From Waterburya sp. (GTDB taxonomy: Bacteria > Cyanobacteriota > Cyanobacteriia > Cyanobacteriales > Xenococcaceae): DNA of 64,000 bases. Shown here one piece after another: positions 10,099-44,634 of this stretch (the first letter of the stretch is position 1; each line of letters starts with the position of its first letter). The stretch lies in the NCBI GenBank assembly GCA_965217895.1, contig CBDCJV010000002.1, forward strand, positions 864,001 to 928,000, given 5' to 3'. The translations under genes were made by a program, and so were the position numbers. Below the pieces are notes generated by a model that ran no database searches, was not told the origin of the DNA, and worked only from the letters and a program-made list of their open reading frames with translations.

Positions 10099-11694
10099 TT
10101 ACGCTTTACTTAACCTGAGAATCTCATTCACCTTTTCAGGATAGACTGACCTCAGTTGCTTTTCCTGTGCTTGAAATTCGGCTAGCTGTGCTTCAATTTC
10201 ATCTTTGACAATTTGACGATATTCGAGGAAATGCTCATTATGGGCGCACATGGTTAGGTAATGTTCCCAAACTCTAGGATTATGGCGGAAAATACCAAAT
10301 AAATGATGCCAAAACTTCCAGCGAGTATTTCGTTTAACGCCCTGTCGCCAAATAACAATACCTAAAGCGCGAATGTCCACCCAATTGGGCATAGTAAAGG
10401 ATGTTTCGTGTTGAGGTGAGCCTAGCTTGAGGAAACAGCGATATACACGGTCTAGGTATGTTTTTGGTTCGTAAAGCGTCCAAAATGCCAGAATGTACTC
10501 TTGGGCAATTTCTTCAATGGGGCGAGTCGGCATAAAGTTCATCAAGGTAGTTTGGTTGATGTCTTGCTGCTTACTATCTCGCAAACGATTTTCTTGTTCC
10601 AAACGCGCCCATAAAGCAGTTAAGGGCAAAGCCTGCAACATCCCAAACATAGCCGTGGGAATAGCTGCTTCCTCTACAAAATTAATAATTCTTTGACCTG
10701 CACCTGTTTTCTCGCCATCAAAACCGATAATAAATCCCGCCATCGGACGAAGCCCCGCCCTAATCATGGTATCGACAGTTTCTGCTAAAGAAGTACGGGT
10801 ATTTTGGAATTTTTTGGTTAGCTGCAAGCTTGTTTCATCAGGAGTTTCAATTCCTAAAAAGACAGCATTAAAATTACACTGCACCATCAATTCCATCAGT
10901 TCAGCGTCAGCAGCTAAATCTACCGAAGCCTCGGTATTAAAATCAAAAGGATATTGATGTTTCTCTTGCCAGACTTTCAATTCTTTGAGAAACAGCTTAA
11001 CATTACGTTTATTGCCAATAAAGTTATCGTCTACCATAAATACTGAACGTCGCCAGCCTAATTCATAGAGGTGATCTAATTCTCGTAACAGCTGTGCTGG
11101 TTCTTTGGTACGGGGTTTGCGACCATAGAGAACAATAATATCGCAGAACTCGCACTGAAACGGGCAACCACGGGAAAACTGTACCGACATAGAGTCATAA
11201 GCATCAAGCTCTAGCAAATCGTAGCGAGGGACAGGAGTGGTAGTCACATCAGGCTTTTCAGCAGCGCGGAAGACACCGCTGATTTCACCTTTGGCTATAG
11301 CTTCGACAAACATCGGCAAAGTTAACTCTCCCTCATCTAAAATGAGAAAATCTGCTCCTGCTGCCTTTGATTCATCAGGTAAAGAAGTTGAATAGGGACC
11401 ACCTACAGCTACTAATTTCCCCCGTCTTTTTGCCTCTTGAATTTGCTTTAGCAGGTCTTGCTTTTGGACAATCATGGCGGAGAAAATTACTAATTCTGCC
11501 CAATCCCATTCTGCTTCGGTAACTTCTCTGATGTTACGGTCTACTAGCTTAAATTCCCATTCTTGGGGCAATATAGCAGCAACGGTAAGCATTCCTAAAG
11601 GCGGTAACAACACTTTGCGATTAACTAGTTCTAAAATTTTGTCATAAGACCAAAAAGTCTTAGGAAAAACAGGATAAATTAATAAAGTTCGCAT
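10099..11694 (-). CDS. B12-binding domain radical SAM protein (DUF4070 C-terminus)
   Basis: PPLGMLTVAA, RGCPFQCEFC (CxxxCxxC), VDDNFIGN. Confidence 0.92.
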   Translation of the reverse strand: MRTLLIYPVFPKTFWSYDKILELVNRKVLLPPLGMLTVAAILPQEWEFKLVDRNIREVTEAEWDWAELVIFSAMIVQKQDLLKQIQEAKRRGKLVAVGGPYSTSLPDESKAAGADFLILDEGELTLPMFVEAIAKGEISGVFRAAEKPDVTTTPVPRYDLLELDAYDSMSVQFSRGCPFQCEFCDIIVLYGRKPRTKEPAQLLRELDHLYELGWRRSVFMVDDNFIGNKRNVKLFLKELKVWQEKHQYPFDFNTEASVDLAADAELMELMVQCNFNAVFLGIETPDETSLQLTKKFQNTRTSLAETVDTMIRAGLRPMAGFIIGFDGEKTGAGQRIINFVEEAAIPTAMFGMLQALPLTALWARLEQENRLRDSKQQDINQTTLMNFMPTRPIEEIAQEYILAFWTLYEPKTYLDRVYRCFLKLGSPQHETSFTMPNWVDIRALGIVIWRQGVKRNTRWKFWHHLFGIFRHNPRVWEHYLTMCAHNEHFLEYRQIVKDEIEAQLAEFQAQEKQLRSVYPEKVNEILRLSKA

Positions 11695-12038
11695 TTTTGA
11701 TAAATTATCTTATATTAAGAAACGTAATCTATCTGAGGGTAACTTAATCTTGGTAAGTTTTAGAATTAAGATTTTAGCAAGTAGCAAGGATTTAACTAAT
11801 CAACAAAAAGTTTTAGAGTGGGCAAATATTAAAAATGACTGCTAAATGAGCGACGCGATCGCTAGAAAATAAGTCTGTCAAAGAGCTTACCGATTTTTTG
11901 ATATGTATTCCCGACAAAAAACCCGAACATATTTGTGGTGTTCGTTCAATGGATCGAAGAAAAGAATTAGAGATATGCTGAATTGTTAACTGATGAATGG
12001 CGAAGTAAGTAAGGCAAATAACCGCTTGTCCTGAAGCA

Positions 12039-13379
12039 ATGGCAAAATCTAAAACTAAAAATGTCTCCGCAAAACAATTAACGGCTGCTCAAAGGCAAGC
12101 TTTAACTCAATTAAAATTATTTGTTAAAAGTGACGAAAGATGCGACGCGATGCGACCCCGCATTTTTCGCCTGAGTGGATATGCAGGGACAGGTAAAAGC
12201 TTTCTGATCTGTCATTTTATCGAGTGGCTTCGAGCAAATAACTTAGAATTGGTAGCAGCAGCACCAACAAACAAAGCAGCTAAAAGCCTAATGCAGGTGG
12301 CAGTGTCGATGGGCCTTAATATCGAGGTAAAAACTATTGCCCAATTATTAGGTCAGCAGCCAGAGATTAATGAAGAAACTGGCTTAGAAGAGTTTACTTC
12401 GATGGGGGAAGCAGAATTTGACCATTATGAAGTGGTGATCATCGATGAATTTTCGATGATTAATCGCAGTAACTTTGAAGAAATAGTCAAGGCGATCGCT
12501 TTAACTATAGATACTAAAGTGGTGTTTGTAGGAGATGAATCACAATTACCGCCAGTAAAAGAAAACGAGCCTGTAGTTGCTGTTTCCAACCAGATTGACA
12601 GTACATTTACCCTCAACGAAATTGTCCGTTATGAGGGTGAAATAGCCGTAGTTGCCGAGCAGATCCGCAGTGATGCTCAATATAATCGCCTTATTTATCC
12701 TTTTCAAAGCAGCGAGGATCGAACAATTGTCTGTCAGCCAAGAAAGCAATGGTTAGAAACGGTAGTTGAATATTTTCAGTCTGATGGTTATAAAATTAAC
12801 CCTGATTACGCCAGATTGCTAGTTTGGCGCAATAAAACAGCAAAATCTGCCAATAAATTCGTGCGATCGCGCTTGTGGGGTCAAGATGCACCGCTTTATG
12901 TACCAGGAGATAGATTAATCGCCAAAAAACCTCTATTTCGCTCTCGTCCTGGGCAAAAAGGTAAAAATAAGTGGAGTGTGCTAATTAATAATTCTGAGGA
13001 ATGTTCTGTCATTGAATCTGCATCAATTAAGCAGCTTTCTTTTGACAGGGTAGCTTATCAATATTGGTCAGTACCAGTCATAACTGATGCTGGGTTTGAA
13101 GTGAATTTATCTATCTTAACCGAGGAAGGAGAACAGCTAAAAAATGAACAGGCTAAATATTACGTAGAAAAAAAGCAGTGGAACAAATATTTTGATCTAT
13201 CACGGATGTTTGATGATGTTACCTACGCCTATGCCTTGACCGTACATAAAGCTCAAGGCTCTAGTATTGATTATGTCTTTTTGGACACCGAAGACATGAA
13301 AAATTGTCCAGATTTACAGAAGATGCTTTATACTGCTTTGACTCGTGCCAAGGTAAGAGCCTTTATTCCCGTAGATTAA
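12039..13379 (+). CDS. SF1B (RecD/Dda-like) ATP-dependent DNA helicase
   Basis: GYAGTGKS, APTNKAA, IIDEFSM, GDESQLPPV, YALTVHKAQGS, YTALTRA. Confidence 0.9.
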   Translation: MAKSKTKNVSAKQLTAAQRQALTQLKLFVKSDERCDAMRPRIFRLSGYAGTGKSFLICHFIEWLRANNLELVAAAPTNKAAKSLMQVAVSMGLNIEVKTIAQLLGQQPEINEETGLEEFTSMGEAEFDHYEVVIIDEFSMINRSNFEEIVKAIALTIDTKVVFVGDESQLPPVKENEPVVAVSNQIDSTFTLNEIVRYEGEIAVVAEQIRSDAQYNRLIYPFQSSEDRTIVCQPRKQWLETVVEYFQSDGYKINPDYARLLVWRNKTAKSANKFVRSRLWGQDAPLYVPGDRLIAKKPLFRSRPGQKGKNKWSVLINNSEECSVIESASIKQLSFDRVAYQYWSVPVITDAGFEVNLSILTEEGEQLKNEQAKYYVEKKQWNKYFDLSRMFDDVTYAYALTVHKAQGSSIDYVFLDTEDMKNCPDLQKMLYTALTRAKVRAFIPVD

Positions 13380-34863: not shown

Positions 34864-36891
34864 TTAAAGCTGTATTCCGCCTTTTTGTAGGCTTTTGAAG
34901 GGAGCAAGAAAAATATCGGCTAGACGACGCTGGCGAATAATAATTTCTGCTGTAGCAGTTTGTCCTGGGGTTAAGATAATATGGCGATCGCCATACTGGA
35001 TATAATTTTGGGCTAGCTGTATTTCTAGTTCGTAAAAATCTCCTTGTTCTTTATTGTCTGCGCCAGAAGCTGAAGATGGCGAGGTGGGAGTAACTCTAGA
35101 ATCAGGAGACACCCAGGTTAAAACTCCAGCAACTATGCCATAGTCTTGAAATGGGTAGGCATCGAACTTGATTTTTACTGGTAATCCAACTTTTAAAAAA
35201 CCACTTTCGCTGCTGTTCATTTTTGCCCGCAAAATTAAAGGAGAATTATATGGTGCAATCTGAGCTATGTTTTGTCCTGGCTGGACGACGGCACCAGGTT
35301 TTTGAATTGGTAATTGAAATACTGTTCCTTTAACTGGGGCATATAACACTCGTTGTTTTAACTGATAGTTTAGTCCTGAAATTATACTGCTAATTTGGGC
35401 GATTTCTCCTTTTGCAGTCTCAATTTGGGCATCGGTATTTTCAAATTCCTCTTTTGCTTTAAGTAAGCTCAAGTTATTACCCTTAACTAGAGAGTTATAA
35501 CCCCTTTGTTGTTCCTGCAAGCGTAATTCTGCTTGGTCTATTTCCGTAGAGGTCTGACGGACTAATTTCTCATAACCATTTTGTTGTTCTTGGTAGCTAG
35601 ATTTGGCTTGAGCAATTTCGGCTGCGGTGCGATTGAGGCTTTCTTTTGCTTCTTTGAATTCCCTGACCATATCCAATAAACGATCCTTAGCAATTACTCC
35701 CTGGCTGAAAGCATCCTGGTAACGAATAACTTTTTCTTGTGTCGCTTCTGTCTGAATTTGTGCCGTATTTTGCTCAGATTTACGGGCAGCGATCGCTTCT
35801 TTTGCTTGTTTTACTAAAGCAGCTTTTTCAGCCATTTGCGAGCTATAGCTAGATTTTGCTCCCAAAAAAGTCTGTTGTGCCTGATCGATCAAAGCCTGCT
35901 TTTCAAACTGTTGAGCTTGGCTTTGCTGTTCTTGCGCCCGTAATGATAGTAGCTGTTGGTCTTTTAGAGATTCCAGGCGATCGAGTTGATTTTGTTGGGC
36001 GGTCAATTTTTGCTGCTGTTGTTGTAATTCTGACTCAACAAGCTCAGATTCAAGCTTAAGTAAACTTTGTCCTGCTTTTACCTGCTCTCCTTCTTTGACC
36101 TCAATCGACATTACCGTACCGCTAACGGGAGAATCAAGATTAACAACTTTGCCCTTTGGCTCTAATTTACCCCTAGCAGAACCAACTTCATCAACTTTGG
36201 CGAATAATGCCCAGGGAACTGCTACTGCAACCAAAATCAAAGTTACATACAATAATCCTCTCAAAGAGACTCTTGGTAAAGTTTCGACCGCCTCTCGCGT
36301 CGAATCTGCCCATTCATTTTCTGCTAGAAGCTCTTGTGGTTTTTCTGGCTCGGTAATTATTTCTACTTCAGGAATTAATACTTTTTCCAATAGCCCAGGA
36401 CTGAATTGAGTATATCCTTTGTGTATAGAGCAGATAGCATCGGTTAATTCTTCTACTGGACTACCTTTTAACAAATAGCCTTTTGCTCCAGCATACAGAG
36501 CCTTTTGCAGGCGATCGCTGTCTTTGTGAGAACTAAGAACCAAAACCTTAGTATTAGGAAATCGCTGAGAAATAATATCTGTAGCTTTCACCCCATCCAT
36601 TTCTGGCATTTCTATGTCGATTAGAACCACATCTGGCTGCAATAATTCGACCTGTTCAACTGCCTGTTGCCCATTCTCCGCAGTGCCGACAATCTTTAAA
36701 TTAGTTACAGATTCAAGAGATTTGCTAATAAATTTACGGACAAAACTTTGATCGTCTACTAATAAAAGACGAATTTGAGGTTGGCTTACTTCATTAATAA
36801 TTTTATAGTTTTCTATCTTTTTCATATCTAAAGCAATTGTTGATTTTTGTTGGTTAATTACTACATTGCTAAATCGGGGTATGATTCTCAA
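34864..36891 (-). CDS. HlyD-family membrane fusion protein with N-terminal response-regulator receiver domain
   Basis: LLVDDQ, DVVLIDIEMPEMDG, GAKGYLLK; then TM, ARGKLEPKG, long coiled coil, KFDAYPFQDYG, LTPGQTATAEI. Confidence 0.9.
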   Translation of the reverse strand: MRIIPRFSNVVINQQKSTIALDMKKIENYKIINEVSQPQIRLLLVDDQSFVRKFISKSLESVTNLKIVGTAENGQQAVEQVELLQPDVVLIDIEMPEMDGVKATDIISQRFPNTKVLVLSSHKDSDRLQKALYAGAKGYLLKGSPVEELTDAICSIHKGYTQFSPGLLEKVLIPEVEIITEPEKPQELLAENEWADSTREAVETLPRVSLRGLLYVTLILVAVAVPWALFAKVDEVGSARGKLEPKGKVVNLDSPVSGTVMSIEVKEGEQVKAGQSLLKLESELVESELQQQQQKLTAQQNQLDRLESLKDQQLLSLRAQEQQSQAQQFEKQALIDQAQQTFLGAKSSYSSQMAEKAALVKQAKEAIAARKSEQNTAQIQTEATQEKVIRYQDAFSQGVIAKDRLLDMVREFKEAKESLNRTAAEIAQAKSSYQEQQNGYEKLVRQTSTEIDQAELRLQEQQRGYNSLVKGNNLSLLKAKEEFENTDAQIETAKGEIAQISSIISGLNYQLKQRVLYAPVKGTVFQLPIQKPGAVVQPGQNIAQIAPYNSPLILRAKMNSSESGFLKVGLPVKIKFDAYPFQDYGIVAGVLTWVSPDSRVTPTSPSSASGADNKEQGDFYELEIQLAQNYIQYGDRHIILTPGQTATAEIIIRQRRLADIFLAPFKSLQKGGIQL

Positions 36892-36990: not shown

Positions 36991-39981
36991 TTAATTGCTA
37001 ATGGCTAACTGTTGTTGATTGAGATGATAATACTGACCCTTACTGCTCATTAATTGCCGATGAGTACCGCTTTCTACCAGTAACCCCCGTTCCATCACTA
37101 AGATTAAATCCGCATTACGAACCGTAGATAAGCGATGGGCAATGATAAAGGTAGTTTGATTTTTGAGAATAGTTTCTAAATTGTTTTGGATAATGCGCTC
37201 TGATTCGGCATCCAAATTGCTAGTAGCCTCATCAAGAATCAATAAACGAGGCTTACCCAATAAAGCACGAGCGATCGCCAGTCTTTGCCTTTGTCCCCCC
37301 GACAGCAATCCACCCCCTTCACCAATCTGAGTATTATATTTTAGAGGCATTTCGTTAATAAATTCTGCTGCCCCAGCCAGTCTACAGGCTTCATCAATCG
37401 CAGCTTTACTTGCTTGAGGATGCCCAATAGTTAGGTTTTCGAGAATTGTTCCGCCAAACAGAAAAGTATCTTGATCGACTACTCCAGCTTGTTCCCGTAA
37501 TGAATGGAGAGAAAGGTTGTTGATGTCGTAGCCATCGATTAAAATTTTACCTTTAGTGGTACTGTACAGTCCTAAAAGTAGTTTAGAGATCGTGGTTTTT
37601 CCCGAACCACTACGACCAACTAAGGCAACGGTTTGTCCTGGTTTGACGACAAAACTAAGATTTTCTAAGGTGTTGATCTCACTTTCTAAGTTGTAGCGGA
37701 AGGTAACATCTTCAAAACAGATATGTCCTTTAATTGGTGGCAACGTAGCTAAATTAAACCTAGACAAATCCTCTTCTGTCTGGGAATTAATCACATCATC
37801 AGTACGCTCGATCGCAATTCTAATTTCTTGAAAATCATTCCAGAGGGCAATTAAGCGTTTGAAAGGACTAATTACATTTGCTACCAACATATTGAAGGCG
37901 ATCAGTTGTCCAATAGTTAATTGATTCTGAATCACCTGCCATACCCCAAATAGCAGCAAGAAGCTAGAAACCAGGGTTTCCATAACTGAGGTAGCAACCT
38001 GGATTCTTTCTCGAATCATTTTGCCCTTAAAATTGATCCGCACAGCTTCATTAATTAAATCTTCCCAACGCCACCTTACTGTCCTTTCGACTCCCATAGA
38101 TTTGATAGTGCCGACTCCCGTTAAAGCTTCAATTAAGTAACTTCGTTCAGTAGTATCAGCATTAAATATTTCGCGAGAAATTCGCACTAAAAAAGGAGTA
38201 GAAATAAAAGTAGTAACTCCAAAGATGGGAATAATGATTAAAGCCAATAAAGACATTTGCCAGCTATACCAAAACATTAAACCTAGATAAATAAAAATAC
38301 TGAGAATATCTAGAACTGTGGTGATGGCATCTCCAGTAATAAAGCTCCTAATCTTACGATTCTCGCTAATTCTGGAGGTAATATCCCCTACATAGCGAGT
38401 TTCAAAATAGCTAAGCGGTAATTGTAGAGCGTGGCTAATAAAGCCGATAATTAAGGATAAATCAAGCTTGTTGGCAGTATGATAGAGCAGATAACGTCGC
38501 AGGCTAGAAAGGGCAATGTCAAACAAGCGGAAGATAATTAAACCTATACCTACTGCTACTAGGGTTGATACGCTGCGCTGTACTACTACCCGATCTAACA
38601 GTACCTGGGTGAAGATCGGTGAGAACAAACCGACAATTTGAATCATTAGAGAAGTAACAAAAACTTCCAACAATACAAACCAATAAGGTTTTAGCAATGC
38701 CGTATATTTCCAGAGATCTTGTTTGGCTTCCCCTGCTTGTTTAAATTTCGCTGTCGGTGTCAGCAAAACAATATATCCAGTCCAGCCAGCAACAAATTCT
38801 TGACGGGTTAAAATCTTTCTGCCAATAGCAGGATCGCAGATAATTACTTGGCTTTTTGTGACCTGATAAACAACAATATAATGGTTTCCCTGCCAGTGAG
38901 CGATCGCAGGTAGTTCTTGACGCGCTAAGGCTGGTAAGTCAGCTTTACGAGGACGCACCGTAAAACCCAGAAATTCTGCTGCCCTAATCAAGCCTTTAAT
39001 GGATGTACCAGCCCGATCTACATTGGCAATATGACGTAACTGATTGACGCTAAAAGTTTTGCCCCAATATTTGCCCACCATTACCAAACAAGCGACTCCG
39101 CAGTCAGATGCACTGTGTTGCTTGTGAAAAGGATAGCGTCTTAACCGCTGTTGCCACCACTGAGTAATTCTGGTTCTGGGAGTAGGAAAATAAAATTGGT
39201 TATCCTCAACTTCAGAATCTTTTTTGGTTGTCTCAGAGGGTAAAACCTGCTCTAATTTTGCTAGAGAAATTCGATTCTGACTAGGGACTGGCTGGATAGA
39301 GGTTAGCTGGGTTCTATTTCTGTCTAGGCTATAAAGTTCTGTTGGTTCACTGACTAACCACTCGCCATTTTGAGGTAATTTATCAACTTCGTAAAGATTA
39401 CTAGGAGTGATTTTTGTGCCTGATGAATGGATAATTTCTCCTTGACGCAAAAGCCAAAGTTCTTGTTCTAATAGAGACTTTGGTAAACTACCCTGCTGTA
39501 GCTCATGTTGTTCTAAAAGCCGCAGCAAAGGCAAAATATCTTTTTTAGATTCAGCTTTACCTTGCTGATAGCGTAAAAGTAAATCTAGCTTCATTCCCTG
39601 AAGATAGAAAATAGATTCTAGCTGTTGATTTTCTGCCACTAAAGATTCCCAGCTAGAGCGATCGAGATAGCCTAACTTTAAACCTAATGAGGCACGTACT
39701 GCATAGGGTTTTAGACTGCCAAGCGGAAACAAGGTTATTTGCCCAAACCAACCTTCAGACAAAGAAATAATTAAATTGTCATCATGATCTAGTAACCTCG
39801 CTTTGCCTTCAATAATTAAATAGACTCCAGCCTCGGAAGTTTGAAAATTCCAGAATAGTTCTCCTGGTTTTGGTTCAATGATTTGTAATTTTCGCAGGCA
39901 GCTTTCTAGCTGTGCAGAGTCAAAAATATTATTTAAAGAAGAATTTAAATTTTGTTTTAAATTTTGTTTTGAAAGCACCAT
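36991..39981 (-). CDS. C39 peptidase-containing ABC exporter (PCAT) with degenerate N-terminal cNMP-binding-like region
   Basis: QHSASDCGVAC (catalytic Cys), HWQGNHYIVV, CDPA; TM domain; GRSGSGKTT, LSGGQRQR, ILDEATS, IAHRLST. Confidence 0.93.
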   Translation of the reverse strand: MVLSKQNLKQNLNSSLNNIFDSAQLESCLRKLQIIEPKPGELFWNFQTSEAGVYLIIEGKARLLDHDDNLIISLSEGWFGQITLFPLGSLKPYAVRASLGLKLGYLDRSSWESLVAENQQLESIFYLQGMKLDLLLRYQQGKAESKKDILPLLRLLEQHELQQGSLPKSLLEQELWLLRQGEIIHSSGTKITPSNLYEVDKLPQNGEWLVSEPTELYSLDRNRTQLTSIQPVPSQNRISLAKLEQVLPSETTKKDSEVEDNQFYFPTPRTRITQWWQQRLRRYPFHKQHSASDCGVACLVMVGKYWGKTFSVNQLRHIANVDRAGTSIKGLIRAAEFLGFTVRPRKADLPALARQELPAIAHWQGNHYIVVYQVTKSQVIICDPAIGRKILTRQEFVAGWTGYIVLLTPTAKFKQAGEAKQDLWKYTALLKPYWFVLLEVFVTSLMIQIVGLFSPIFTQVLLDRVVVQRSVSTLVAVGIGLIIFRLFDIALSSLRRYLLYHTANKLDLSLIIGFISHALQLPLSYFETRYVGDITSRISENRKIRSFITGDAITTVLDILSIFIYLGLMFWYSWQMSLLALIIIPIFGVTTFISTPFLVRISREIFNADTTERSYLIEALTGVGTIKSMGVERTVRWRWEDLINEAVRINFKGKMIRERIQVATSVMETLVSSFLLLFGVWQVIQNQLTIGQLIAFNMLVANVISPFKRLIALWNDFQEIRIAIERTDDVINSQTEEDLSRFNLATLPPIKGHICFEDVTFRYNLESEINTLENLSFVVKPGQTVALVGRSGSGKTTISKLLLGLYSTTKGKILIDGYDINNLSLHSLREQAGVVDQDTFLFGGTILENLTIGHPQASKAAIDEACRLAGAAEFINEMPLKYNTQIGEGGGLLSGGQRQRLAIARALLGKPRLLILDEATSNLDAESERIIQNNLETILKNQTTFIIAHRLSTVRNADLILVMERGLLVESGTHRQLMSSKGQYYHLNQQQLAISN

Positions 39982-40529
39982 TGGGAGTTTTTAAGTTGAG
40001 ATATAGATGCTGGATTAAGATCCTCGATCGCAATACCGCATTTGTCTTTGGTAAATACTTTTTGATGGTTTAGTTTTTGCTGTTTTTTGGTTGACAGTCC
40101 CATCTGCTTGAGTAAACGATTAACGTGGCGATCGCTTATCTCGATTCCTAACTCCTGCGCCAGATGCTTGCTTAACCACTTTGCCGTCCAGCGTTCAAAC
40201 GAATACCCATAATCTTTTGGGCTATTGATAACCAGTTTTTGCAGACGATTTAGATATTCATCATTTACTGTTTTTGGTCTACCCACAGAATGCTCTTGCC
40301 AAGAACTTACTTTTTCTGTTTTGGCGATCGCCATCCAATATCTGGCTGTATCTCTAGAACAACCCAAGGCAGAACAGATTTCTGTCTGGGACTGCCCCAT
40401 ACGAGCGCGAAGCACAATTTCTAGGCGACGACGCTTAGTTTCATCTAAGTGGACTGGAATATCTTCGGGAATTATCTGCGCCAGTAAAGAAGATAATTCT
40501 TTTATTTGATTGACTTCCTGTTTTTTCAT
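39957..40529 (-). CDS. Transposase-like (IS630-type) HTH DNA-binding protein lacking a DDE domain; probable regulator of the export operon
   Basis: RRLEIVL...SQTEICSALGCSRDTARYW, GRP, SPKDYGYSFERWTAKWLSKHL; overlaps the exporter start. Confidence 0.8.
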   Translation of the reverse strand: MKKQEVNQIKELSSLLAQIIPEDIPVHLDETKRRRLEIVLRARMGQSQTEICSALGCSRDTARYWMAIAKTEKVSSWQEHSVGRPKTVNDEYLNRLQKLVINSPKDYGYSFERWTAKWLSKHLAQELGIEISDRHVNRLLKQMGLSTKKQQKLNHQKVFTKDKCGIAIEDLNPASISQLKNSQWCFQNKI

Positions 40530-41103
40530 TACTCTGCTTGTTTGAAAACTTTATAGCCGTTAACTAGAACTTTTTAGATCATCGCTAATCTACTGTTAAC
40601 TAGACATTAACTTTTACGAAGACATAATAGCCTCCATTGTGTCTTTAAATTAGTCATTATTTTAATATTTCAAACTGAGCCAACTAACAAAAAATATGTT
40701 TATCTAAGAAATAATGATACAACAGCAAAGCCTTTTGATTAGCTCAAAGAATCTTAAATTTAAATTTAATCTAACCGCCTAATATAAGCCATAATGGGAT
40801 TCATTCCGTATCATAACTACTATTGAAAGATATATATAGTAATTTAAAATACATTAGGGGACTCGAACAGATATCTAATCTAAAGTTAGTGTCTTTTTAA
40901 ACTATCAAACATTAGAGACATAATTATTTGCTTAAACTAATTTATGTCCAACTATTTGAGCAATTTAGGTTGATTTTGAATGGTTTTTTAAATTAAAACT
41001 AAGGCTAGATGAAAAAACGGTTATGGCAATTTAACATTCCATCAGCCTGATTCATCGCTAGTTTTGTAGATCATCTAATCAGCACTAAAGGAGAATTAAA
41101 GCA

Positions 41104-41361
41104 ATGGGAATTAATATTAACGATTTAAACCAAAAGCCTCTTGGTGGAGAATTGTTGTCTGGTTCTGAGAGCATTATGGACAACCTTCGCGTTCTTTCTG
41201 AAGAAGAATTGAGCATATCTGGTGGTGGCGGCTCCTGTGGTGGCGGCAGCAAAGGCAGTAAAGGCGGCAGTAAAGGTAGTAAAGGCGGCAGTAAAGGTAG
41301 TAAAGGCGGCAGCAAAGGCGGTGGATGTTACAATCCATGCCCCCCCCCTTGCCACCCTTAA
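41104..41361 (+). CDS. Double-glycine RiPP/secreted peptide precursor with GGSKGSK-repeat, Cys/Pro-rich core
   Basis: RBS AAGGAG upstream; leader MGININDL...GGELL...LSEEELSISGG; core GGSCGGGSKGSKGGSKGSKGGSKGSKGGSKGGGCYNPCPPPCHP. Confidence 0.88.
   Translation: MGININDLNQKPLGGELLSGSESIMDNLRVLSEEELSISGGGGSCGGGSKGSKGGSKGSKGGSKGSKGGSKGGGCYNPCPPPCHP
41242..41319 (+). repeat. Coding 21-bp tandem repeat (3 full copies + partial)
   Basis: GGCGGCAGYAAAGGYAGTAAA x3 + GGCGGCAGCAAAGGC; variation only at synonymous positions. Confidence 0.95.
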
Positions 41362-41383
41362 AAACTTTGTCCCTTGACAATAG

Positions 41384-41461
41384 GTAGCTTCAAAATACTC
41401 CATCAAAGGCGATCAATAACTTAATATTAGCGATCCTTTTGATGGAGAAGCTACTTTTTTT
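41384..41461 (+). terminator. Long stem-loop with T tract between precursor and kinase genes
   Basis: GTAGCTT...CTCCATCAAAGG...CCTTTTGATGGAG-AAGCTAC followed by T7. Confidence 0.7.
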
Positions 41462-41504: not shown

Positions 41505-42707
41505 ATGGGATTAATTCTTAGTGCTGACAATGTAGTTAATTTCTTAAAGCAGCACCAGATTTGTCCTCCAGATTTTCAACCTACTGTTCCAGTAATCTGT
41601 AAAGAGAGTAAAAACTTTAATTTAGTAGTTCAGTCGAAAGATAGTCCTAGTTTTTTAGTTAAGCAAAATCGGCTTGATAGTCAAGGGAAAACTTCAGGGA
41701 ATTTATTTAGCGAATGGTTAGTCCAAGAACTAGTCAATAACTTTAACGAGCTAGCTTCTATTCAACCTTTAATCTCGGAAGTAGTATTATTTGATCGAGC
41801 CAACTCAATTCTGGTATCGGTTTTCTACGATCAATATATCTCTATTGATGACTATTACGAGGTTCGCCAAAGCTATAATCCGCAGATAGCTCAGATGGTT
41901 GGAGCCAATTTAGCTCAAGTTCATCGCACTACCTATCAAAAGCCACATCTCAAAAAGTTTTTGAGTCAATACTTTAATTTAGAACTAGCAAAAAAACCAC
42001 CAGGATTTATTAGAAGATTAAATAGTCTTAGTCCTAGTATTTTTGGTGAAATCTGTCCTGATGGCTTAAATTTTTATAAACTATATCAACGGTTTCCTAG
42101 TCTTAATCGAGCAGTTGTAGAACTGTACGACGATCTACAGCCAGCTTGTCTTACCCATGATGACTTGAAACTAGATAACTTTATTATTGATAATAGTTTT
42201 GATGCCGATCTTGATAGCATTAAGCCAGAACAAATCAAGATAATTGATTGGGAATTGTGTTGCTGGGCAGATCCAGCAACAGATTTAGGAATGCTGATAT
42301 CTCAATATTTAGCAGAATGGCTTAATAGTTTAGTTGCTGATCCAAACCTGGAACTCGATATCATCCTCAGTATAGCTATCTGTCCTCTAGAAAAAATTAC
42401 GCCAAGTCTTAGAGAATTATTGCGAGGATATTTGAATGCCTTTCCCGAAATTATAGAGGATCGCCCTGATTTCGTAAGTAGAATTGTGCAGTTTGCAGGA
42501 ATTGGCATTCTCGATCGCTTAAGTTACCACGTTGAACATCATTATCCTTTCGACAATGATGCTCTTTGCAAACTACAGGTTGCCAAGAATTTACTTTGCT
42601 ATGCCGATAAAGGAATTAAAACGATATTTGGCACTACCGAAGCTGAGTTGATAGAACATTATAGCTCAAAAAAATTAAGTAATTTAAAGACTGTAGCCTT
42701 AAAATAA
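41505..42707 (+). CDS. APH-like phosphotransferase / peptide kinase (class V LanK-like)
   Basis: KNFNLVV, FLVKQ, LTHDDLKLDN (HxDxxxxN), IIDWE, DPATDLG. Confidence 0.85.
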   Translation: MGLILSADNVVNFLKQHQICPPDFQPTVPVICKESKNFNLVVQSKDSPSFLVKQNRLDSQGKTSGNLFSEWLVQELVNNFNELASIQPLISEVVLFDRANSILVSVFYDQYISIDDYYEVRQSYNPQIAQMVGANLAQVHRTTYQKPHLKKFLSQYFNLELAKKPPGFIRRLNSLSPSIFGEICPDGLNFYKLYQRFPSLNRAVVELYDDLQPACLTHDDLKLDNFIIDNSFDADLDSIKPEQIKIIDWELCCWADPATDLGMLISQYLAEWLNSLVADPNLELDIILSIAICPLEKITPSLRELLRGYLNAFPEIIEDRPDFVSRIVQFAGIGILDRLSYHVEHHYPFDNDALCKLQVAKNLLCYADKGIKTIFGTTEAELIEHYSSKKLSNLKTVALK

Positions 42708-42751: not shown

Positions 42752-43840
42752 ATGATTTCAGCGATCGCTTCTGCAAATCAGTCAGATTTAATAGCCCACC
42801 AGTTTAAGTTTAAACAGCAGCTAGAAAACGTTGTCGCTAAAGTGGCGATCGCCTCAAATTTTACGATCTCCTATGAAGATTTTGAACCTTTAGAAGTTAA
42901 ACCTCATCTTAAAGAGTATTTAAACCAAATCTCTCCTACAGAGCGCAATCAATATCTTGCAGCTAAACTGCAAACATATCTTTACAGTATTTTTTGTACT
43001 AGACTTAAGCCAGATCTCAATAATTCTTTGACTACTGAAGATACGACTAGGGTAGCTAATCGGATTAAAAAATGGTATAAAACCGAGTTTTACCAACAAC
43101 TTACTCAAAATAATCACGGTCAAGGTTACAGCGATCCTAATTGGTTAGTCACTAAGCAAGTAGATGATTATTGGCACGTCACCAAAAATCATCTAACCTT
43201 GCATATTAAAAATAGTCATCTTGTCGAAGCCTCAGAAAAATTATCTCTAGGAAAATTAGTGTCAATTAAAATGCCCTCAAACTTAGTAGATAGAGGTATA
43301 TATATTGCAGTGGGGGATAAAGGTTCAGCCAATAGTATAGGTGGCGATCGAGGCTCTATAATTAACCAACTGTATTTTAATGTTGACTCTCAAGGGGCAT
43401 TACGTCTGCTGGATGATTTAACTCAAACATTAAATCAAATCAAAGTTCCTTTTGATTTTAAAATTGCTTACAACGAGACAAAATTCGACGATCTTGATGC
43501 GGTGGTTTTAGAGTTTAGAAACAATGATTTCGATCTGATATATCCTGTAGTCCAAACTGCTTGTTACGAACGTCAAACTTATTTTCGCTCAGAGATCCCC
43601 TTCTTTTGCCAGTTTCTCTCCCCTGGTTTGGGGTTGGCAGAAAAACCGCGATCGCCAAAATTCGCACGAGAGAATATCGGGCAACACTATTGCGGTATCA
43701 TCGCCCAGGCTTTAGTCGAAATATGGCAGCAAAACAATTTAATTGAAAATAAATTAGATTATGTCCTAAATTACTTATCCGCAGGGGGGGTAGATATCGA
43801 ACGTCTTTATCTTAATCCTCATTTACAGAGCAATGATTGA
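42752..43840 (+). CDS. HopA1-family protein (class V LanY-like), apparently degenerate active site
   Basis: NHGQGYSDPNW, YIAVGD, LYFNV, PFDFKI, PGLGLAEKP, LYLNP. Confidence 0.8.
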   Translation: MISAIASANQSDLIAHQFKFKQQLENVVAKVAIASNFTISYEDFEPLEVKPHLKEYLNQISPTERNQYLAAKLQTYLYSIFCTRLKPDLNNSLTTEDTTRVANRIKKWYKTEFYQQLTQNNHGQGYSDPNWLVTKQVDDYWHVTKNHLTLHIKNSHLVEASEKLSLGKLVSIKMPSNLVDRGIYIAVGDKGSANSIGGDRGSIINQLYFNVDSQGALRLLDDLTQTLNQIKVPFDFKIAYNETKFDDLDAVVLEFRNNDFDLIYPVVQTACYERQTYFRSEIPFFCQFLSPGLGLAEKPRSPKFARENIGQHYCGIIAQALVEIWQQNNLIENKLDYVLNYLSAGGVDIERLYLNPHLQSND

Positions 43841-43929: not shown

Positions 43930-44634
43930 ATGCCTATTGAACCTTGGTTTCCCCTTGTTGTCTATTATGCAGACTTAGAAGATGCCTCAAAACATAAAGA
44001 GTCTCTAGTATCTACAATTCTCAAGCTGGAAAAAGAAAATGGTTATCAAAGAAGAATCGATGCTGATATTGCCTGGACTGGAGATTTTCACGGAGTAGGA
44101 CATATTCATGAACATCCCAATTTTACTTGGATTGTTGAGCAAATGGAAGCTCACATTCTCCGTTATCTTGAAGAGTTGGGGATTGATTTAGACAAAATAG
44201 AATTGTATATTCAAAGAGCTTGGCCCATTGTGTCTCGTGAAAATCAAGCAATTCCTCCCCATGCTCATCACAATGCTCACGTCAGTGCCGTATACTATGT
44301 ATCCATTCCTGAAAGTGGTACTGCCAAATCTGGTGCGTTTACGATTTACAATGATGCGGGGATGAACGAAATTCTTGAAGGTATAGGAGACGAGTATACT
44401 AATGCCATTAAGAAAAGAAACCCATTCAACTATGAAACAGGATACTATGCGCCTAAAGAAGGAAGAATATTAATATTTCCCTCAAAGCAACGTCATGGCG
44501 TAGAAGCCAACGAAACTGGAGAGATCAGAATCTCATTATCTTTCGATGTTGTCATTACCTCTTCAGAAAATGGAGATCCTGGATTGCATGAATTTTTATC
44601 GCCCCCACCAAGCCAGTGGAAAAAATTTGGATAG
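43930..44634 (+). CDS. 2-oxoglutarate/Fe(II)-dependent oxygenase-like protein (TIGR02466-type)
   Basis: PHAHHNAHVSAVYY, PKEGRILIFPS, HGV, RISLSFD. Confidence 0.85.
   Translation: MPIEPWFPLVVYYADLEDASKHKESLVSTILKLEKENGYQRRIDADIAWTGDFHGVGHIHEHPNFTWIVEQMEAHILRYLEELGIDLDKIELYIQRAWPIVSRENQAIPPHAHHNAHVSAVYYVSIPESGTAKSGAFTIYNDAGMNEILEGIGDEYTNAIKKRNPFNYETGYYAPKEGRILIFPSKQRHGVEANETGEIRISLSFDVVITSSENGDPGLHEFLSPPPSQWKKFG

Follow-up and report, generated by a model that had tools for sequence, protein, structure and literature searches.

Current annotation treats kinase/HopA1 gene pairs without distinction as Ser/Thr dehydratases, under labels such as 'lanthidin' or class V. In class V lanthipeptide clusters, the gene for the lyase LanY lies directly after that of an APH-type kinase; examples are CaoY with CaoK and LxmY with LxmK (PDB 9DK1-9DK3), and both kinases depend on their partners. 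Mutants of CaoY indicate which residues elimination needs. According to PMC9486802, K219A abolishes elimination, R187A nearly abolishes it (a trace is kept) and R229Q is a partial defect that leaves most of the activity in place. Kinase-HopA1 pairs have also been described in cyanobacteria, as the 'Family 1A' HopA1/phosphotransferase clusters of Eyles et al. (2021, PMC8153245). That a modified ribosomal peptide can stay phosphorylated is known from phospeptin (EmbA/EmbM), which Paoli et al. (2022, PMC9259500) present as a linear peptide that ends up poly-phosphorylated; the lanthipeptide-type dehydration domain behind it keeps its kinase function, while its elimination residues are mutated. 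Here we compare these systems with a HopA1/LanY-fold protein from the cyanobacterium Waterburya sp. and with the clade to which it belongs.

The protein and its clade

The window, that is, the whole stretch of 64,000 nucleotides that was analysed, encodes at 42752..43840 (+) a protein of 362 aa, a member of what we call the divergent 'Q clade' of HopA1/LanY-fold proteins. It matches PF17914, the HopA1 effector protein family, with 152.3 bits (E 1.5e-44; cut-off 22.7) over profile positions 1-170 of 170. A scan of the whole genome agrees and finds it as a single copy. NCBIfam, searched at E<=0.01, returned no family for it. Its AF2 model (pLDDT 84.2, pTM 0.83) has the lyase LxmY as top structural match, with Z 22.8 and an rmsd of 3.7 A over 290 aligned residues. 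Other matches are HopA1 (4rsx, Z 14.2), LanKC lyase domains (Z about 10) and OspF/SpvC (Z 8-9). Identity to LxmY is 16-17%, and phmmer with the 362-aa protein alone gave no match among PDB sequences; it took the profile and P0079 to reach LxmY (9dk1_B) by HMMER.

An earlier note on this DNA had proposed that the protein is a pseudo-lyase, comparing its motifs with a cyanobacterial consensus. All motif strings quoted there are present in the translation of 43361-43699 (+), INQLYFN...FDFKIAYNETKFDDLDAVVLEF...IPFFCQFLSPGLGLAEKP...ENIGQHYCGI, which is residues 204-316 of the ORF. The consensus is real as well: it matches the motifs [VT]RIYFN, FSFKxLYNPxDYxRYDSxVLYF, PLFTK, AEEP and ESFGxNRC that we find in 30 canonical cyanobacterial HopA1 genes, chosen by Pfam score only.

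The divergent pattern is common to 78 proteins at 40-69% identity, and these form a monophyletic clade (support 100). Judged from these sequences, the divergent residues are a trait of the clade, neither chance nor a one-off. The ORFs are full-length in all 78 homologues, and an alignment of 28 of them holds 26 invariant and 39 nearly invariant columns. A metagenome scan added only three further loci. In the literature on HopA1/LanY lyases, kinase-HopA1 RiPPs and (GK)n peptides we found no description of the clade or its peptides.

Active-site positions

In the HMMER alignment with LxmY (9dk1_B), Q206, K237, D247, E254 and Y313 of the window protein fall on R189, K221, R231, Y238 and R299, and the spacing of CaoY R187/K219/R229/Y236 (PMC9486802) is that of the aligned window positions. 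Q206 (codon 43367..43369, +) takes the place of the carbonyl-activating Arg, CaoY R187; the clade has Q in 73, E in 4 and R in 1 of its 78 members, against R in 30/30 canonical genes. The catalytic base, CaoY K219, is kept in the window as K237 (43460..43462, +). Among canonical genes this column holds K in 25/30 and Q in 5/30, and in the clade it holds K in 42, R in 22, N in 7, S in 3, Q in 2, I in 1 and E in 1 (n=78). D247 (43490..43492, +) stands at the phosphate-binding Arg, CaoY R229. This residue is R in 30/30 canonical genes and in only 24/78 clade members, the rest having D, N, H, S, K, Y and others. Where CaoY has Y236, the window has E254 (43511..43513, +): the clade shows E in 58, D in 14, N in 4, S in 1, a gap in 1 and Tyr in none (n=78), whereas 29/30 canonical genes have Tyr. 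Finally, Y313 (43688..43690, +) replaces the Arg of the 'NRC' motif, LxmY R299, which is R in 120/146 members of the wider family; the clade has Y in 46, H in 14, C in 9 and L in 6, plus others (n=80). The window protein therefore has neither the Arg of LanY at CaoY 187 / LxmY 189, nor the Arg at CaoY 229 / LxmY 231, nor the Tyr at CaoY 236 / LxmY 238.

The loss of three Arg that the earlier note had suspected is thus borne out (Q206, D247 and Y313 in place of LxmY R189, R231 and R299). Its lost Lys fares less well. The Lys of PLFTK, at position 287, is indeed replaced in the window and is K in 89% of the pattern-defined canonical set, but 49/80 clade members still have K there, we know of no catalytic role for the position, and the catalytic K237 is kept. 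The Tyr-to-Glu change at 254 is a further substitution beyond those that had been named. Aligning the protein with LxmY and CaoY, the check that had been proposed, does place the substitutions at residues that CaoY needs. R187 and Y236 are, however, not universal in the HopA1 family at large: of 146 representatives, 46 carry all four residues (RKRY) and 100 differ, and many keep K, R229 and R313 and have neither R187 nor Y236. Some active lyases may thus do without these two residues.

The residues that replace the canonical ones are themselves strongly conserved in the clade: Q206 in 94%, E/D254 in 93%, C286 in 94%, K298 in 99% and N308 in 99%. Together with E242 they make up a clade-specific conserved set. 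By homology to CaoY and LxmY the replaced residues are predicted to line one pocket, and the former pocket segment, residues 240-255, is acidic (net charge -4.3 versus -0.8). Residues of interface and fold are common to clade and canonical proteins (N121, G125, W131, L148, P175, Y184, A186).

Cassette and cognate peptides

The clade has a fixed cassette of double-glycine precursor, kinase, HopA1-like protein and 2OG oxygenase. In all 17 clade loci the kinase gene lies directly upstream of the HopA1-like gene, so that the neighbourhood is that of a LanY, with an APH-type kinase and a leader-bearing precursor. The kinase of the window (41505..42707, +; 400 aa) is LanK-like, of the APH fold (PF01636, E 4.8e-10), and is predicted to be active. 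It scores 72.7 bits against the LxmK model NF038156, below the cut-off of 315, and matches LxmK (9dk1_A) weakly; we take it as related to LxmK and not as its equivalog. The VKQ lysine, HxDxxxxN and IDWE are kept in 12/12 clade kinases compared, and the same motifs are found in 18 canonical kinases.

Downstream of the HopA1-like gene follows a 2OG-Fe(II) oxygenase-like protein of 234 aa (43930..44634, +; TIGR02466 / PF13759). An oxygenase gene occupies this position in 15/17 clade loci and in 0/18 canonical regions; the two clade loci where it does not lie directly downstream are L002 and L063. The closest solved relatives, 2rg4 and 3bvc, both bear the title 'uncharacterized protein', and the literature on PF13759 offered nothing useful on function. 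On the other strand lie an HTH protein of 190 aa (39957..40529, -; Pfam HTH_33, HTH_32, HTH_28), which adjoins the ABC gene in clade and canonical loci alike, a C39-peptidase ABC exporter of 996 aa (36991..39981, -; Pfam Peptidase_C39, ABC_membrane, ABC_tran), predicted to cleave after GG and to export and syntenic in related loci, and a HlyD-type membrane-fusion protein of 675 aa with an N-terminal response-regulator receiver domain (34864..36891, -; Pfam Response_reg and HlyD_3), syntenic where contigs reach. A Pfam scan of eight neighbouring proteins gave no LanX, LanC or LanD. PF05147 (LanC) has no match in the genome, and control genomes were likewise silent.

The precursor peptide of the window (41104..41361, +; 85 aa) is the only copy in its genome and has no Pfam or NCBIfam match. 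Its leader reads MGININDL..LLSGSESIM..LRVLSEEELSISGG, its core GGSCGGG(SKG/SKGG)n GGGCYNPCPPPCHP, with 8 Ser, 7 Lys, 4 Cys and 1 Tyr; each Ser except the first precedes a Lys. Using a leader HMM we collected 22 precursors from 16 related loci, across which the leader is conserved. Their cores are of low complexity; some consist of (GK)n or (SKG)n ahead of an aromatic tail. Tyr occurs in all 22, Lys in 20 and Cys in 8 (for example in GCGCGSRY motifs); 13 are net cationic, and 4 contain neither Ser nor Thr. By comparison, all cores of the canonical precursors, which come from 11 of the 18 regions, contain Ser/Thr. The Ser-richest core of the clade, that of L002, has 17 Ser alternating with Arg/Lys, and its partner protein has Asn at the catalytic-Lys position. 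The cassettes with N or S at this position (L002, L008, L011) are otherwise intact. Over 16 loci we saw no link between core composition and the residue at 237 or 247.

Function and known systems

The loss of canonical phospho-Ser/Thr beta-elimination is a well-supported prediction from these comparisons, with four of the five compared active-site residues replaced. It is supported by the mutagenesis of CaoY, since residues that CaoY needs are replaced throughout the clade, by the tolerance of the catalytic-Lys position, which holds N, S, Q, I, E or R in 36/78 members, including those in intact cassettes, and by the peptides, since some cores have no Ser/Thr and the Ser-richest core is paired with the Asn partner. 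Against it one can hold that the window protein keeps K237, that CaoY R229Q and R187A retain most and a trace of activity, respectively, and that a core with 8 Ser and 4 Cys is typical of lanthipeptides. What takes the place of elimination is more tentative. The reading we favour, to which we would give slightly less than an even chance, is that the protein is kept as the obligate partner of the kinase, that its old pocket has been retooled into an acidic peptide-binding site and that the end product is phosphorylated. A role as partner of the kinase would fit the intact kinase motifs, the shared interface and fold residues and the fixed adjacency of the two genes; an acidic peptide-binding pocket would fit the conserved replacements, the charge of segment 240-255 and the many cationic cores. 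The earlier suggestion that the protein is kept as a scaffold undersells the site, because conserved replacements and an acidic pocket point to retooling, as does the clade-specific oxygenase. The suggestion of an unremoved phosphate holds up as far as needed CaoY residues are replaced beside a kinase with intact motifs, but phospho-Ser as a stable end point cannot apply throughout, since 4/22 cognate cores are free of both Ser and Thr.

Under the favoured reading the conserved double-glycine leader would dock on the kinase, by analogy with CaoA-CaoK and LxmA-LxmK, and the kinase would phosphorylate core hydroxyls, in this genome probably the Ser of the (SKG)n repeats. The substrate cavity is predicted to have the HopA1-like subunit as its second wall; there the cationic, Gly/Lys-rich core would be held and its phosphate left in place. 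A further modification would come from the cassette-specific oxygenase, while cleavage after GG and export would fall to the C39-ABC/HlyD pair. This course would lead to an end product that carries phosphate, and possibly hydroxyl groups, rather than dehydrated residues or lanthionine bridges.

One could also argue that the protein is still a phospho-Ser lyase, with K/R237 or E/D254 as base, Q206 hydrogen-bonded to the carbonyl and Lys/Arg of the substrate stabilising the phosphate; dehydroalanines would then react with Cys or Lys to lanthionine or lysinoalanine without a dedicated cyclase. We consider this unlikely. In its favour, K or R is found at position 237 in 64/78 clade members, and E/D254, Q206, K298 and N308 are 93-99% conserved, as in a working site. 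E/D254 could serve as an alternative base, and the Lys or Arg that flank Ser in the window core and in the alternating (SR)n-type core of L002 could stabilise the phosphate leaving group. Cys is present in 8/22 cores, and family members that keep K, R229 and R313 suggest that R187 and Y236 are not strictly required. Yet 14/78 members have N, S, Q, I or E at the base position and the Arg of another 22 would be a poor base, the Ser-richest core goes with an Asn there, and four cores offer no Ser/Thr to eliminate from. In addition, none of the three Arg that bind phosphate or enolate is left, an acidic pocket segment would repel phosphate, and no cyclase or LanD was found among the neighbours scanned, nor LanC in the genome (the silence of the control genomes applies here too).

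Against our favoured reading, too, the strong conservation of the new residues would be expected of an active enzyme no less than of a binding site. In another reading the protein has acquired a new activity. Together with the oxygenase and the kinase it would act on residues other than Ser/Thr: for example, hydroxylation of the Lys of X-Lys-Gly or of the C-terminal Tyr/His would create a site for phosphorylation, and the phospho-ester would then be transformed by the retooled pocket. X-Lys-Gly is the target of collagen lysyl hydroxylases, and an APH fold is found in the animal hydroxylysine kinase. The oxygenase is present in 15/17 clade loci and in none of the 18 canonical regions, Ser/Thr-free cores still adjoin a kinase with intact motifs, nearly every core offers Tyr and Lys, and the clade-specific residues are conserved. 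We nevertheless find this reading quite improbable: the particular chemistry is purely hypothetical, the nearest solved structures of the oxygenase are uncharacterised, L002 and L063 have no oxygenase directly downstream, and two cores have no Lys. Similarly doubtful to us is the general form of this idea, that the clade, far from being a dead lyase, is an enzyme of a new kind in which the scaffold of LanY has been rebuilt around Gln206, Glu254, Lys298, Cys286 and Asn308 and which, with oxygenase and kinase, gives secreted low-complexity (Gly-Lys)n peptides with an aromatic tail a hitherto undescribed modification; if true, it would define a new RiPP class. A last reading, that a lyase gene is decaying here into a remnant without function, has next to no probability in our view. 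It is true that the protein has lost several residues which are catalytic in characterised relatives, but we reject the pseudogene on the conservation of full-length ORFs, of alignment columns and of the replacement residues; the synteny with the kinase is fixed and the AF2 model is confident (pLDDT 84).

Returning to our favoured reading of a kinase partner without elimination, the closest relatives to compare it with are the class V LanY proteins. The window protein shares with them fold, Pfam family, a gene directly after an APH-type kinase, a leader-bearing substrate and the catalytic Lys. It differs in having Q, D, E and Y at CaoY R187, R229, Y236 and LxmY R299, and the Lys is not conserved in its clade. 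The cassette differs as well, with an oxygenase added and no LanX, LanC or LanD found among the eight neighbours scanned, and with low-complexity cores that often have no Ser, Thr or Cys. The Pseudomonas syringae effector HopA1 (PDB 4RSX, 4RSW), after which the Pfam family is named, is structurally similar (Z about 14), but it is a secreted protein of a plant pathogen without a kinase partner, whereas the window protein belongs to a cyanobacterial peptide-maturation operon. LanKC lyase domains and OspF/SpvC resemble the window protein in a distant core fold (Z 8-10) but not in sequence, and it lacks their Lys/His/Arg active-site set.

The 'Family 1A' clusters of Eyles et al. have the same kinase-HopA1 pair, double-glycine leaders, variable cores and HTH/C39-ABC/HlyD neighbours, and a leader motif of the ELFQDSES / ELLSGSES type is common to them and the clade precursors. 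The clade differs from canonical members of the family, which keep R/K/R/Y, have no oxygenase (0/18) and carry cores of about 40 aa with conserved Ser/Thr. In the supplementary tables 1 and 2 of PMC8153245 (file 2 has 1,697 rows), the part of the supplement that we searched, none of Xenococcus, Xen7305DRAFT, GKGKGKGK, LLSGSES or LRVLSEEEL occurs. The clade shows that annotation as dehydratase may mislead for an entire conserved lineage: the lyase half has lost residues that experiments show to be needed, yet it is still under strong selection beside an intact kinase. The clade is also a natural experiment on what LanY does besides catalysis, for example for kinase solubility or the substrate cavity.

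Phospeptin is a precedent in logic only, since its maturase is a single LanM-like domain of another fold and from another phylum. The enzymes here are a split system of APH-fold kinase and HopA1-fold protein, in which the dismantled lyase persists as a separate conserved protein. If the products are indeed phosphorylated or newly modified poly-(Gly-Lys) and (Ser-Lys-Gly) peptides, ribosomal peptides would be shown to become phosphorylated by a second route, independent of that of phospeptin, and one that leads to an unusual type of product, highly charged and of low complexity.

Residues at the canonical lyase site

The HopA1-like gene (42752–43840, plus strand), within which the span 43361–43700 falls, encodes a 362-aa, full-length member of the Pfam HopA1 family (PF17914, E 1.5e-44, 152.3 bits, profile positions 1–170 of 170). 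It is the only HopA1-family gene that a Pfam profile search finds in the 5.29-Mb genome. The AF2 model, for which 28 sequences were used, has good confidence values (pLDDT 84.2, pTM 0.83). It matches the lexapeptide lyase LxmY, whose structure is solved (9dk1_B), with Z 22.8 (rmsd 3.7 Å, 290 residues; Foldseek E 8e-17), P. syringae HopA1 with Z about 14, lyase domains from class III/IV lanthipeptide synthetases with Z about 10 and OspF/SpvC with Z 8–9. Because of these matches, the predicted fold is that of a LanY lyase.

An earlier note had proposed, by comparison with a cyanobacterial HopA1 consensus, that this protein is a pseudo-lyase that lost three Arg and one Lys. The strings it quoted (QLYFN, FKIAYNETKFDDLDAVVLEF, PFFCQ, AEKP and ENIGQHYC) are all present in the translation of 43361–43699. 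The consensus that it gave is also exactly what is seen in 30 canonical loci, the top-scoring ones (picked by score, not motif) from 401 cyanobacterial genomes scanned with the Pfam HopA1 model: [VT]RIYFN, FSFKxLYNPxDYxRYDSxVLYF, PLFTK, AEEP and ESFGxNRC. HopA1 genes occur in 61 of the 401 genomes, including 45 of 45 from one family, mostly in 2–3 copies each.

LxmY aligns both with the profile of the window protein's relatives and with P0079, a canonical homologue. In the alignment, LxmY R189, K221, R231, Y238 and R299 pair with Q206, K237, D247, E254 and Y313 of the window protein. The key residues are spaced just as R187, K219, R229 and Y236 are in the lyase CaoY (Arg to Lys 32, Lys +10, Lys +17). 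In the CaoY study, elimination is abolished by K219A, nearly abolished by R187A and partial with R229Q, and Y236 is the counterpart of the SpvC tyrosine that takes part in abstracting the alpha proton (PMC9486802). By this mapping, the window protein has other residues in place of three conserved Arg and the Tyr, and it keeps the catalytic Lys (K237). The proposed loss of three Arg thus stands. The Lys that the note counted as lost, in the change from PLFTK to PFFCQ, belongs to a less conserved position without a known role. By homology, the replaced residues would be grouped in space.

A clade trait within a variable family

Our results show that the replacement is a trait of a clade rather than an accident. 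Among 5.8 billion proteins there were 79 matches, of which one is the window protein itself, 77 are homologues with 40–69% identity and one is a canonical protein (P0079, 34% identity). In the 78 clade members, the position of CaoY Arg187 is occupied by Q (73), E (4) or R (1) and that of Lys219 by K (42), R (22), N (7), S (3), Q (2), I (1) or E (1). Arg229 is R in only 24, and Tyr236 is E (58), D (14), N (4), S (1) or a gap (1), never Tyr. The 30 canonical loci have R in 30, K in 25, R in 30 and Y in 29 at these columns. In a FastTree tree of 188 sequences (five key columns removed, the clade thinned to 22 rows, rows with more than 25% gaps dropped) the clade is a single branch (support 100, stem length 0.47). 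The clade is rare. It was found in one of the 401 sampled cyanobacterial genomes, the window's own, at 13 loci among species-representative genomes (hosted only by Pleurocapsa, Hyellaceae, Xenococcus, Waterburya, Acaryochloris, Thermosynechococcaceae and unnamed Cyanobacteriota) and at three loci from metagenomes.

A column comparison suggests that the former pocket has been rebuilt and constrained, not drifted. We compared 80 clade sequences with 72 sequences carrying Arg, Lys, Arg and Tyr at the four positions (RKRY). Since the pattern itself defines the latter group, its 100% at those columns is circular; the remaining columns are independent. Both groups share fold and interface residues (N121, G125, W131, L148, P175, Y184, A186, Y208, N210, F234, L253, F285, G292, A296-E297, P299, G310, C314). 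Other positions are conserved within each group yet differ between clade and RKRY sequences: Q206/R, E242/P, F245/Y, C286/T, K298/E or D and N308/S. The mean net charge of segment 240–255 is −4.3 in the clade versus −0.8 in the 30 canonical loci.

The wider HopA1 family also varies at these positions. Among the best 146 new matches from 2,689 representatives (E<=1e-3), a list biased towards the query's relatives, RKRY occurs in only 46, and the Lys is kept in 106, Arg229 in 117 and the Arg299 equivalent in 120. Since most non-RKRY forms vary at Arg187 and Tyr236 and keep the other three, these two positions may not be indispensable, which calls for caution with every reading. The window's clade is the extreme case, since Arg229 and Arg299 are also lost and the Lys is relaxed.

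Five of the 30 canonical loci, paralogues from one cyanobacterial family (f6; L032, L038, L039, L043, L044), form one supported subclade in which Gln takes the place of the catalytic Lys (FTFQVLY), with retention of both Arg and, mostly, of the Tyr. Because their genomes carry 2–3 HopA1 copies, inactive-looking paralogues may be common. At the five key positions, the low-scoring cyanobacterial HopA1 genes L066–L070 read EARSR, QQRHR, RQRIR, -ELKR and, in an ORF of 834 aa, QGRRR; several are without the catalytic Lys. Canonical residues thus seem to have been lost repeatedly within the HopA1 family. A C-terminal HopA1 domain in which Glu, Gln or Ser replaces Arg187 is found in proteins of ~760–830 aa (P0105, P0109, P0120, P0122, P0134, P0138, P0141, P0149, P0154, P0158), presumably kinase-HopA1 fusions; in other proteins, of ~720–780 aa, the domain is N-terminal and RKRY is intact.

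Cassette and peptide cores

In the window the HopA1-like gene is part of a compact plus-strand operon. It follows the gene for an 85-aa precursor (41104–41361), with a double-glycine leader ending in LSEEELSISGG and the core GGSCGGG(SKG/SKGG)nGGGCYNPCPPPCHP, and an APH-fold kinase (41505–42707), and precedes a 2OG-Fe(II) oxygenase-like gene (43930–44634; TIGR02466/PF13759). Four more ORFs of 51–93 aa (41085–41406, both strands) overlap the precursor gene. They are repeat-built (LLPLLPP, AAFTTFT etc.) and apparently not genes but mechanical by-products of GGTAGTAAAGG-type repeat DNA. Upstream, the minus strand carries an HTH gene, a C39-peptidase ABC exporter (36991–39981) and an HlyD-type membrane-fusion protein (34864–36891). 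Peptide export may be signal-gated, because the HlyD protein has an N-terminal response-regulator receiver domain and the exporter a weak cNMP-binding-like N-terminus (E 0.009). A LanC search of the window's genome gave no match, and the control for that search was likewise silent.

The kinase lies directly upstream of the HopA1-like gene in 17 of 17 clade loci (the window, L002–L014, L063–L065), and the oxygenase follows in all except L002 and L063 (15/17). The kinase-HopA1 pair is also present in 18 canonical regions of 16 kb, eight of which have the same HTH/ABC/HlyD neighbours and none an oxygenase. All 12 clade kinases compared have intact catalytic motifs (VKQ lysine, HxDxxxxN, IDWE) of the same type as the 18 canonical kinases. 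In L014, a Waterburya MAG locus, the main cassette is followed downstream by another kinase/HopA1 pair (10437–12673), which looks doubly degenerate: the kinase reads HGNLRLDK versus H(N/D)DLxLDN elsewhere, which replaces the catalytic Asp and Asn, and the HopA1-like ORF ends at 294 aa and reads D, Y and S in place of Arg187, Arg229 and Tyr236.

A leader HMM gave 26 rows, or 22 distinct clade precursors once duplicate domain rows and one weak match without a delimitable core were dropped. Their leaders are conserved (MGININDL..LLSGSES..LRVLSEEEL.ISGG) and share an ELxxxSES motif with canonical leaders. The cores are hypervariable and of low complexity, i.e., (GK)n, (SR)n, (SKG)n or Asn/Ile/Asp-rich. 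An aromatic/His tail (e.g. RYYYH, SRYHH, SRHY, RYW or SRYFYY) usually closes them. Tyr is present in all 22 and Lys in 20; four (L007, L008, L011, L013) contain neither Ser nor Thr. The HopA1-like protein that accompanies the Ser-richest core (17 Ser, L002) carries Asn in place of the catalytic Lys. Canonical precursors, recovered from 11 of the 18 regions, all contain Ser/Thr, and most have conserved cores of ~40 residues (e.g. ..SDVSD.STLTKLAEAFVN.YGIGHI.YLAKSYSDKGYY). Almost pure (Gly-Lys)n cores, in which as many as 22 of 54 residues are Lys and which have RYYYH, RYYYKW, RYW or SRYHH tails, occur in the precursors of predicted secreted peptides at L005, L007, L008, L009, L011, L064 and L065; the literature searched contains no description of (GK)n precursor peptides.

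Possible functions and known relatives

In the clade, as our results show, selection does not maintain the canonical LanY elimination machinery: the Arg that activates the enolate, the two Arg on the phosphate side and the Tyr have been lost, the clade can dispense with the base and some substrates offer nothing to eliminate from. On the same grounds we tentatively favor, as the likeliest reading, that phosphate elimination has been lost from the window protein. The protein would remain as the structural, substrate-holding partner of the kinase, probably in a heterodimer like CaoK-CaoY and LxmK-LxmY, where the kinase alone is insoluble and the substrate cavity is enclosed by both subunits together (PMC9486802, PMC12141560). 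Its acidic pocket would suit the mostly cationic cores, and the cassette would export phosphorylated, perhaps hydroxylated, peptides. Of this picture, our analysis shows the fold, the replaced residues and their spread through the clade, the synteny, the kinase's intact motifs and the make-up of the cores, from which the heterodimer, the phospho-acceptor, the loss of elimination and the part played by the oxygenase are inferred.

One could also argue that the window protein is a non-canonical lyase. K237 is kept, E/D254 could serve as base, a substrate Lys/Arg beside each Ser could stand in for the enzyme's arginines, and the window core offers 8 Ser and 4 Cys; we nevertheless consider such an enzyme rather unlikely. 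Somewhat less probable still is a neofunctionalised enzyme coupled to the oxygenase. Such an enzyme would agree with the strongly conserved new residues, the restriction of the oxygenase to the clade and the Ser/Thr-free cores. That the protein is a decaying remnant is contradicted by its conservation and hence highly improbable.

Cyanobacterial kinase/HopA1 clusters with double-glycine precursors have been catalogued as 'Family 1A', with products unknown in that study (PMC8153245). The window's clade belongs with this kind of cluster. Two data tables of PMC8153245 contain neither the clade's leader and core strings nor Xenococcus, and the literature searched describes no LanY clade without the catalytic residues. 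For a phosphorylated end product, as we propose for the window cassette, phospeptin provides a natural precedent, in which a dehydration domain of the lanthipeptide type whose elimination residues are mutated yields a poly-phosphorylated final product (PMC9259500).
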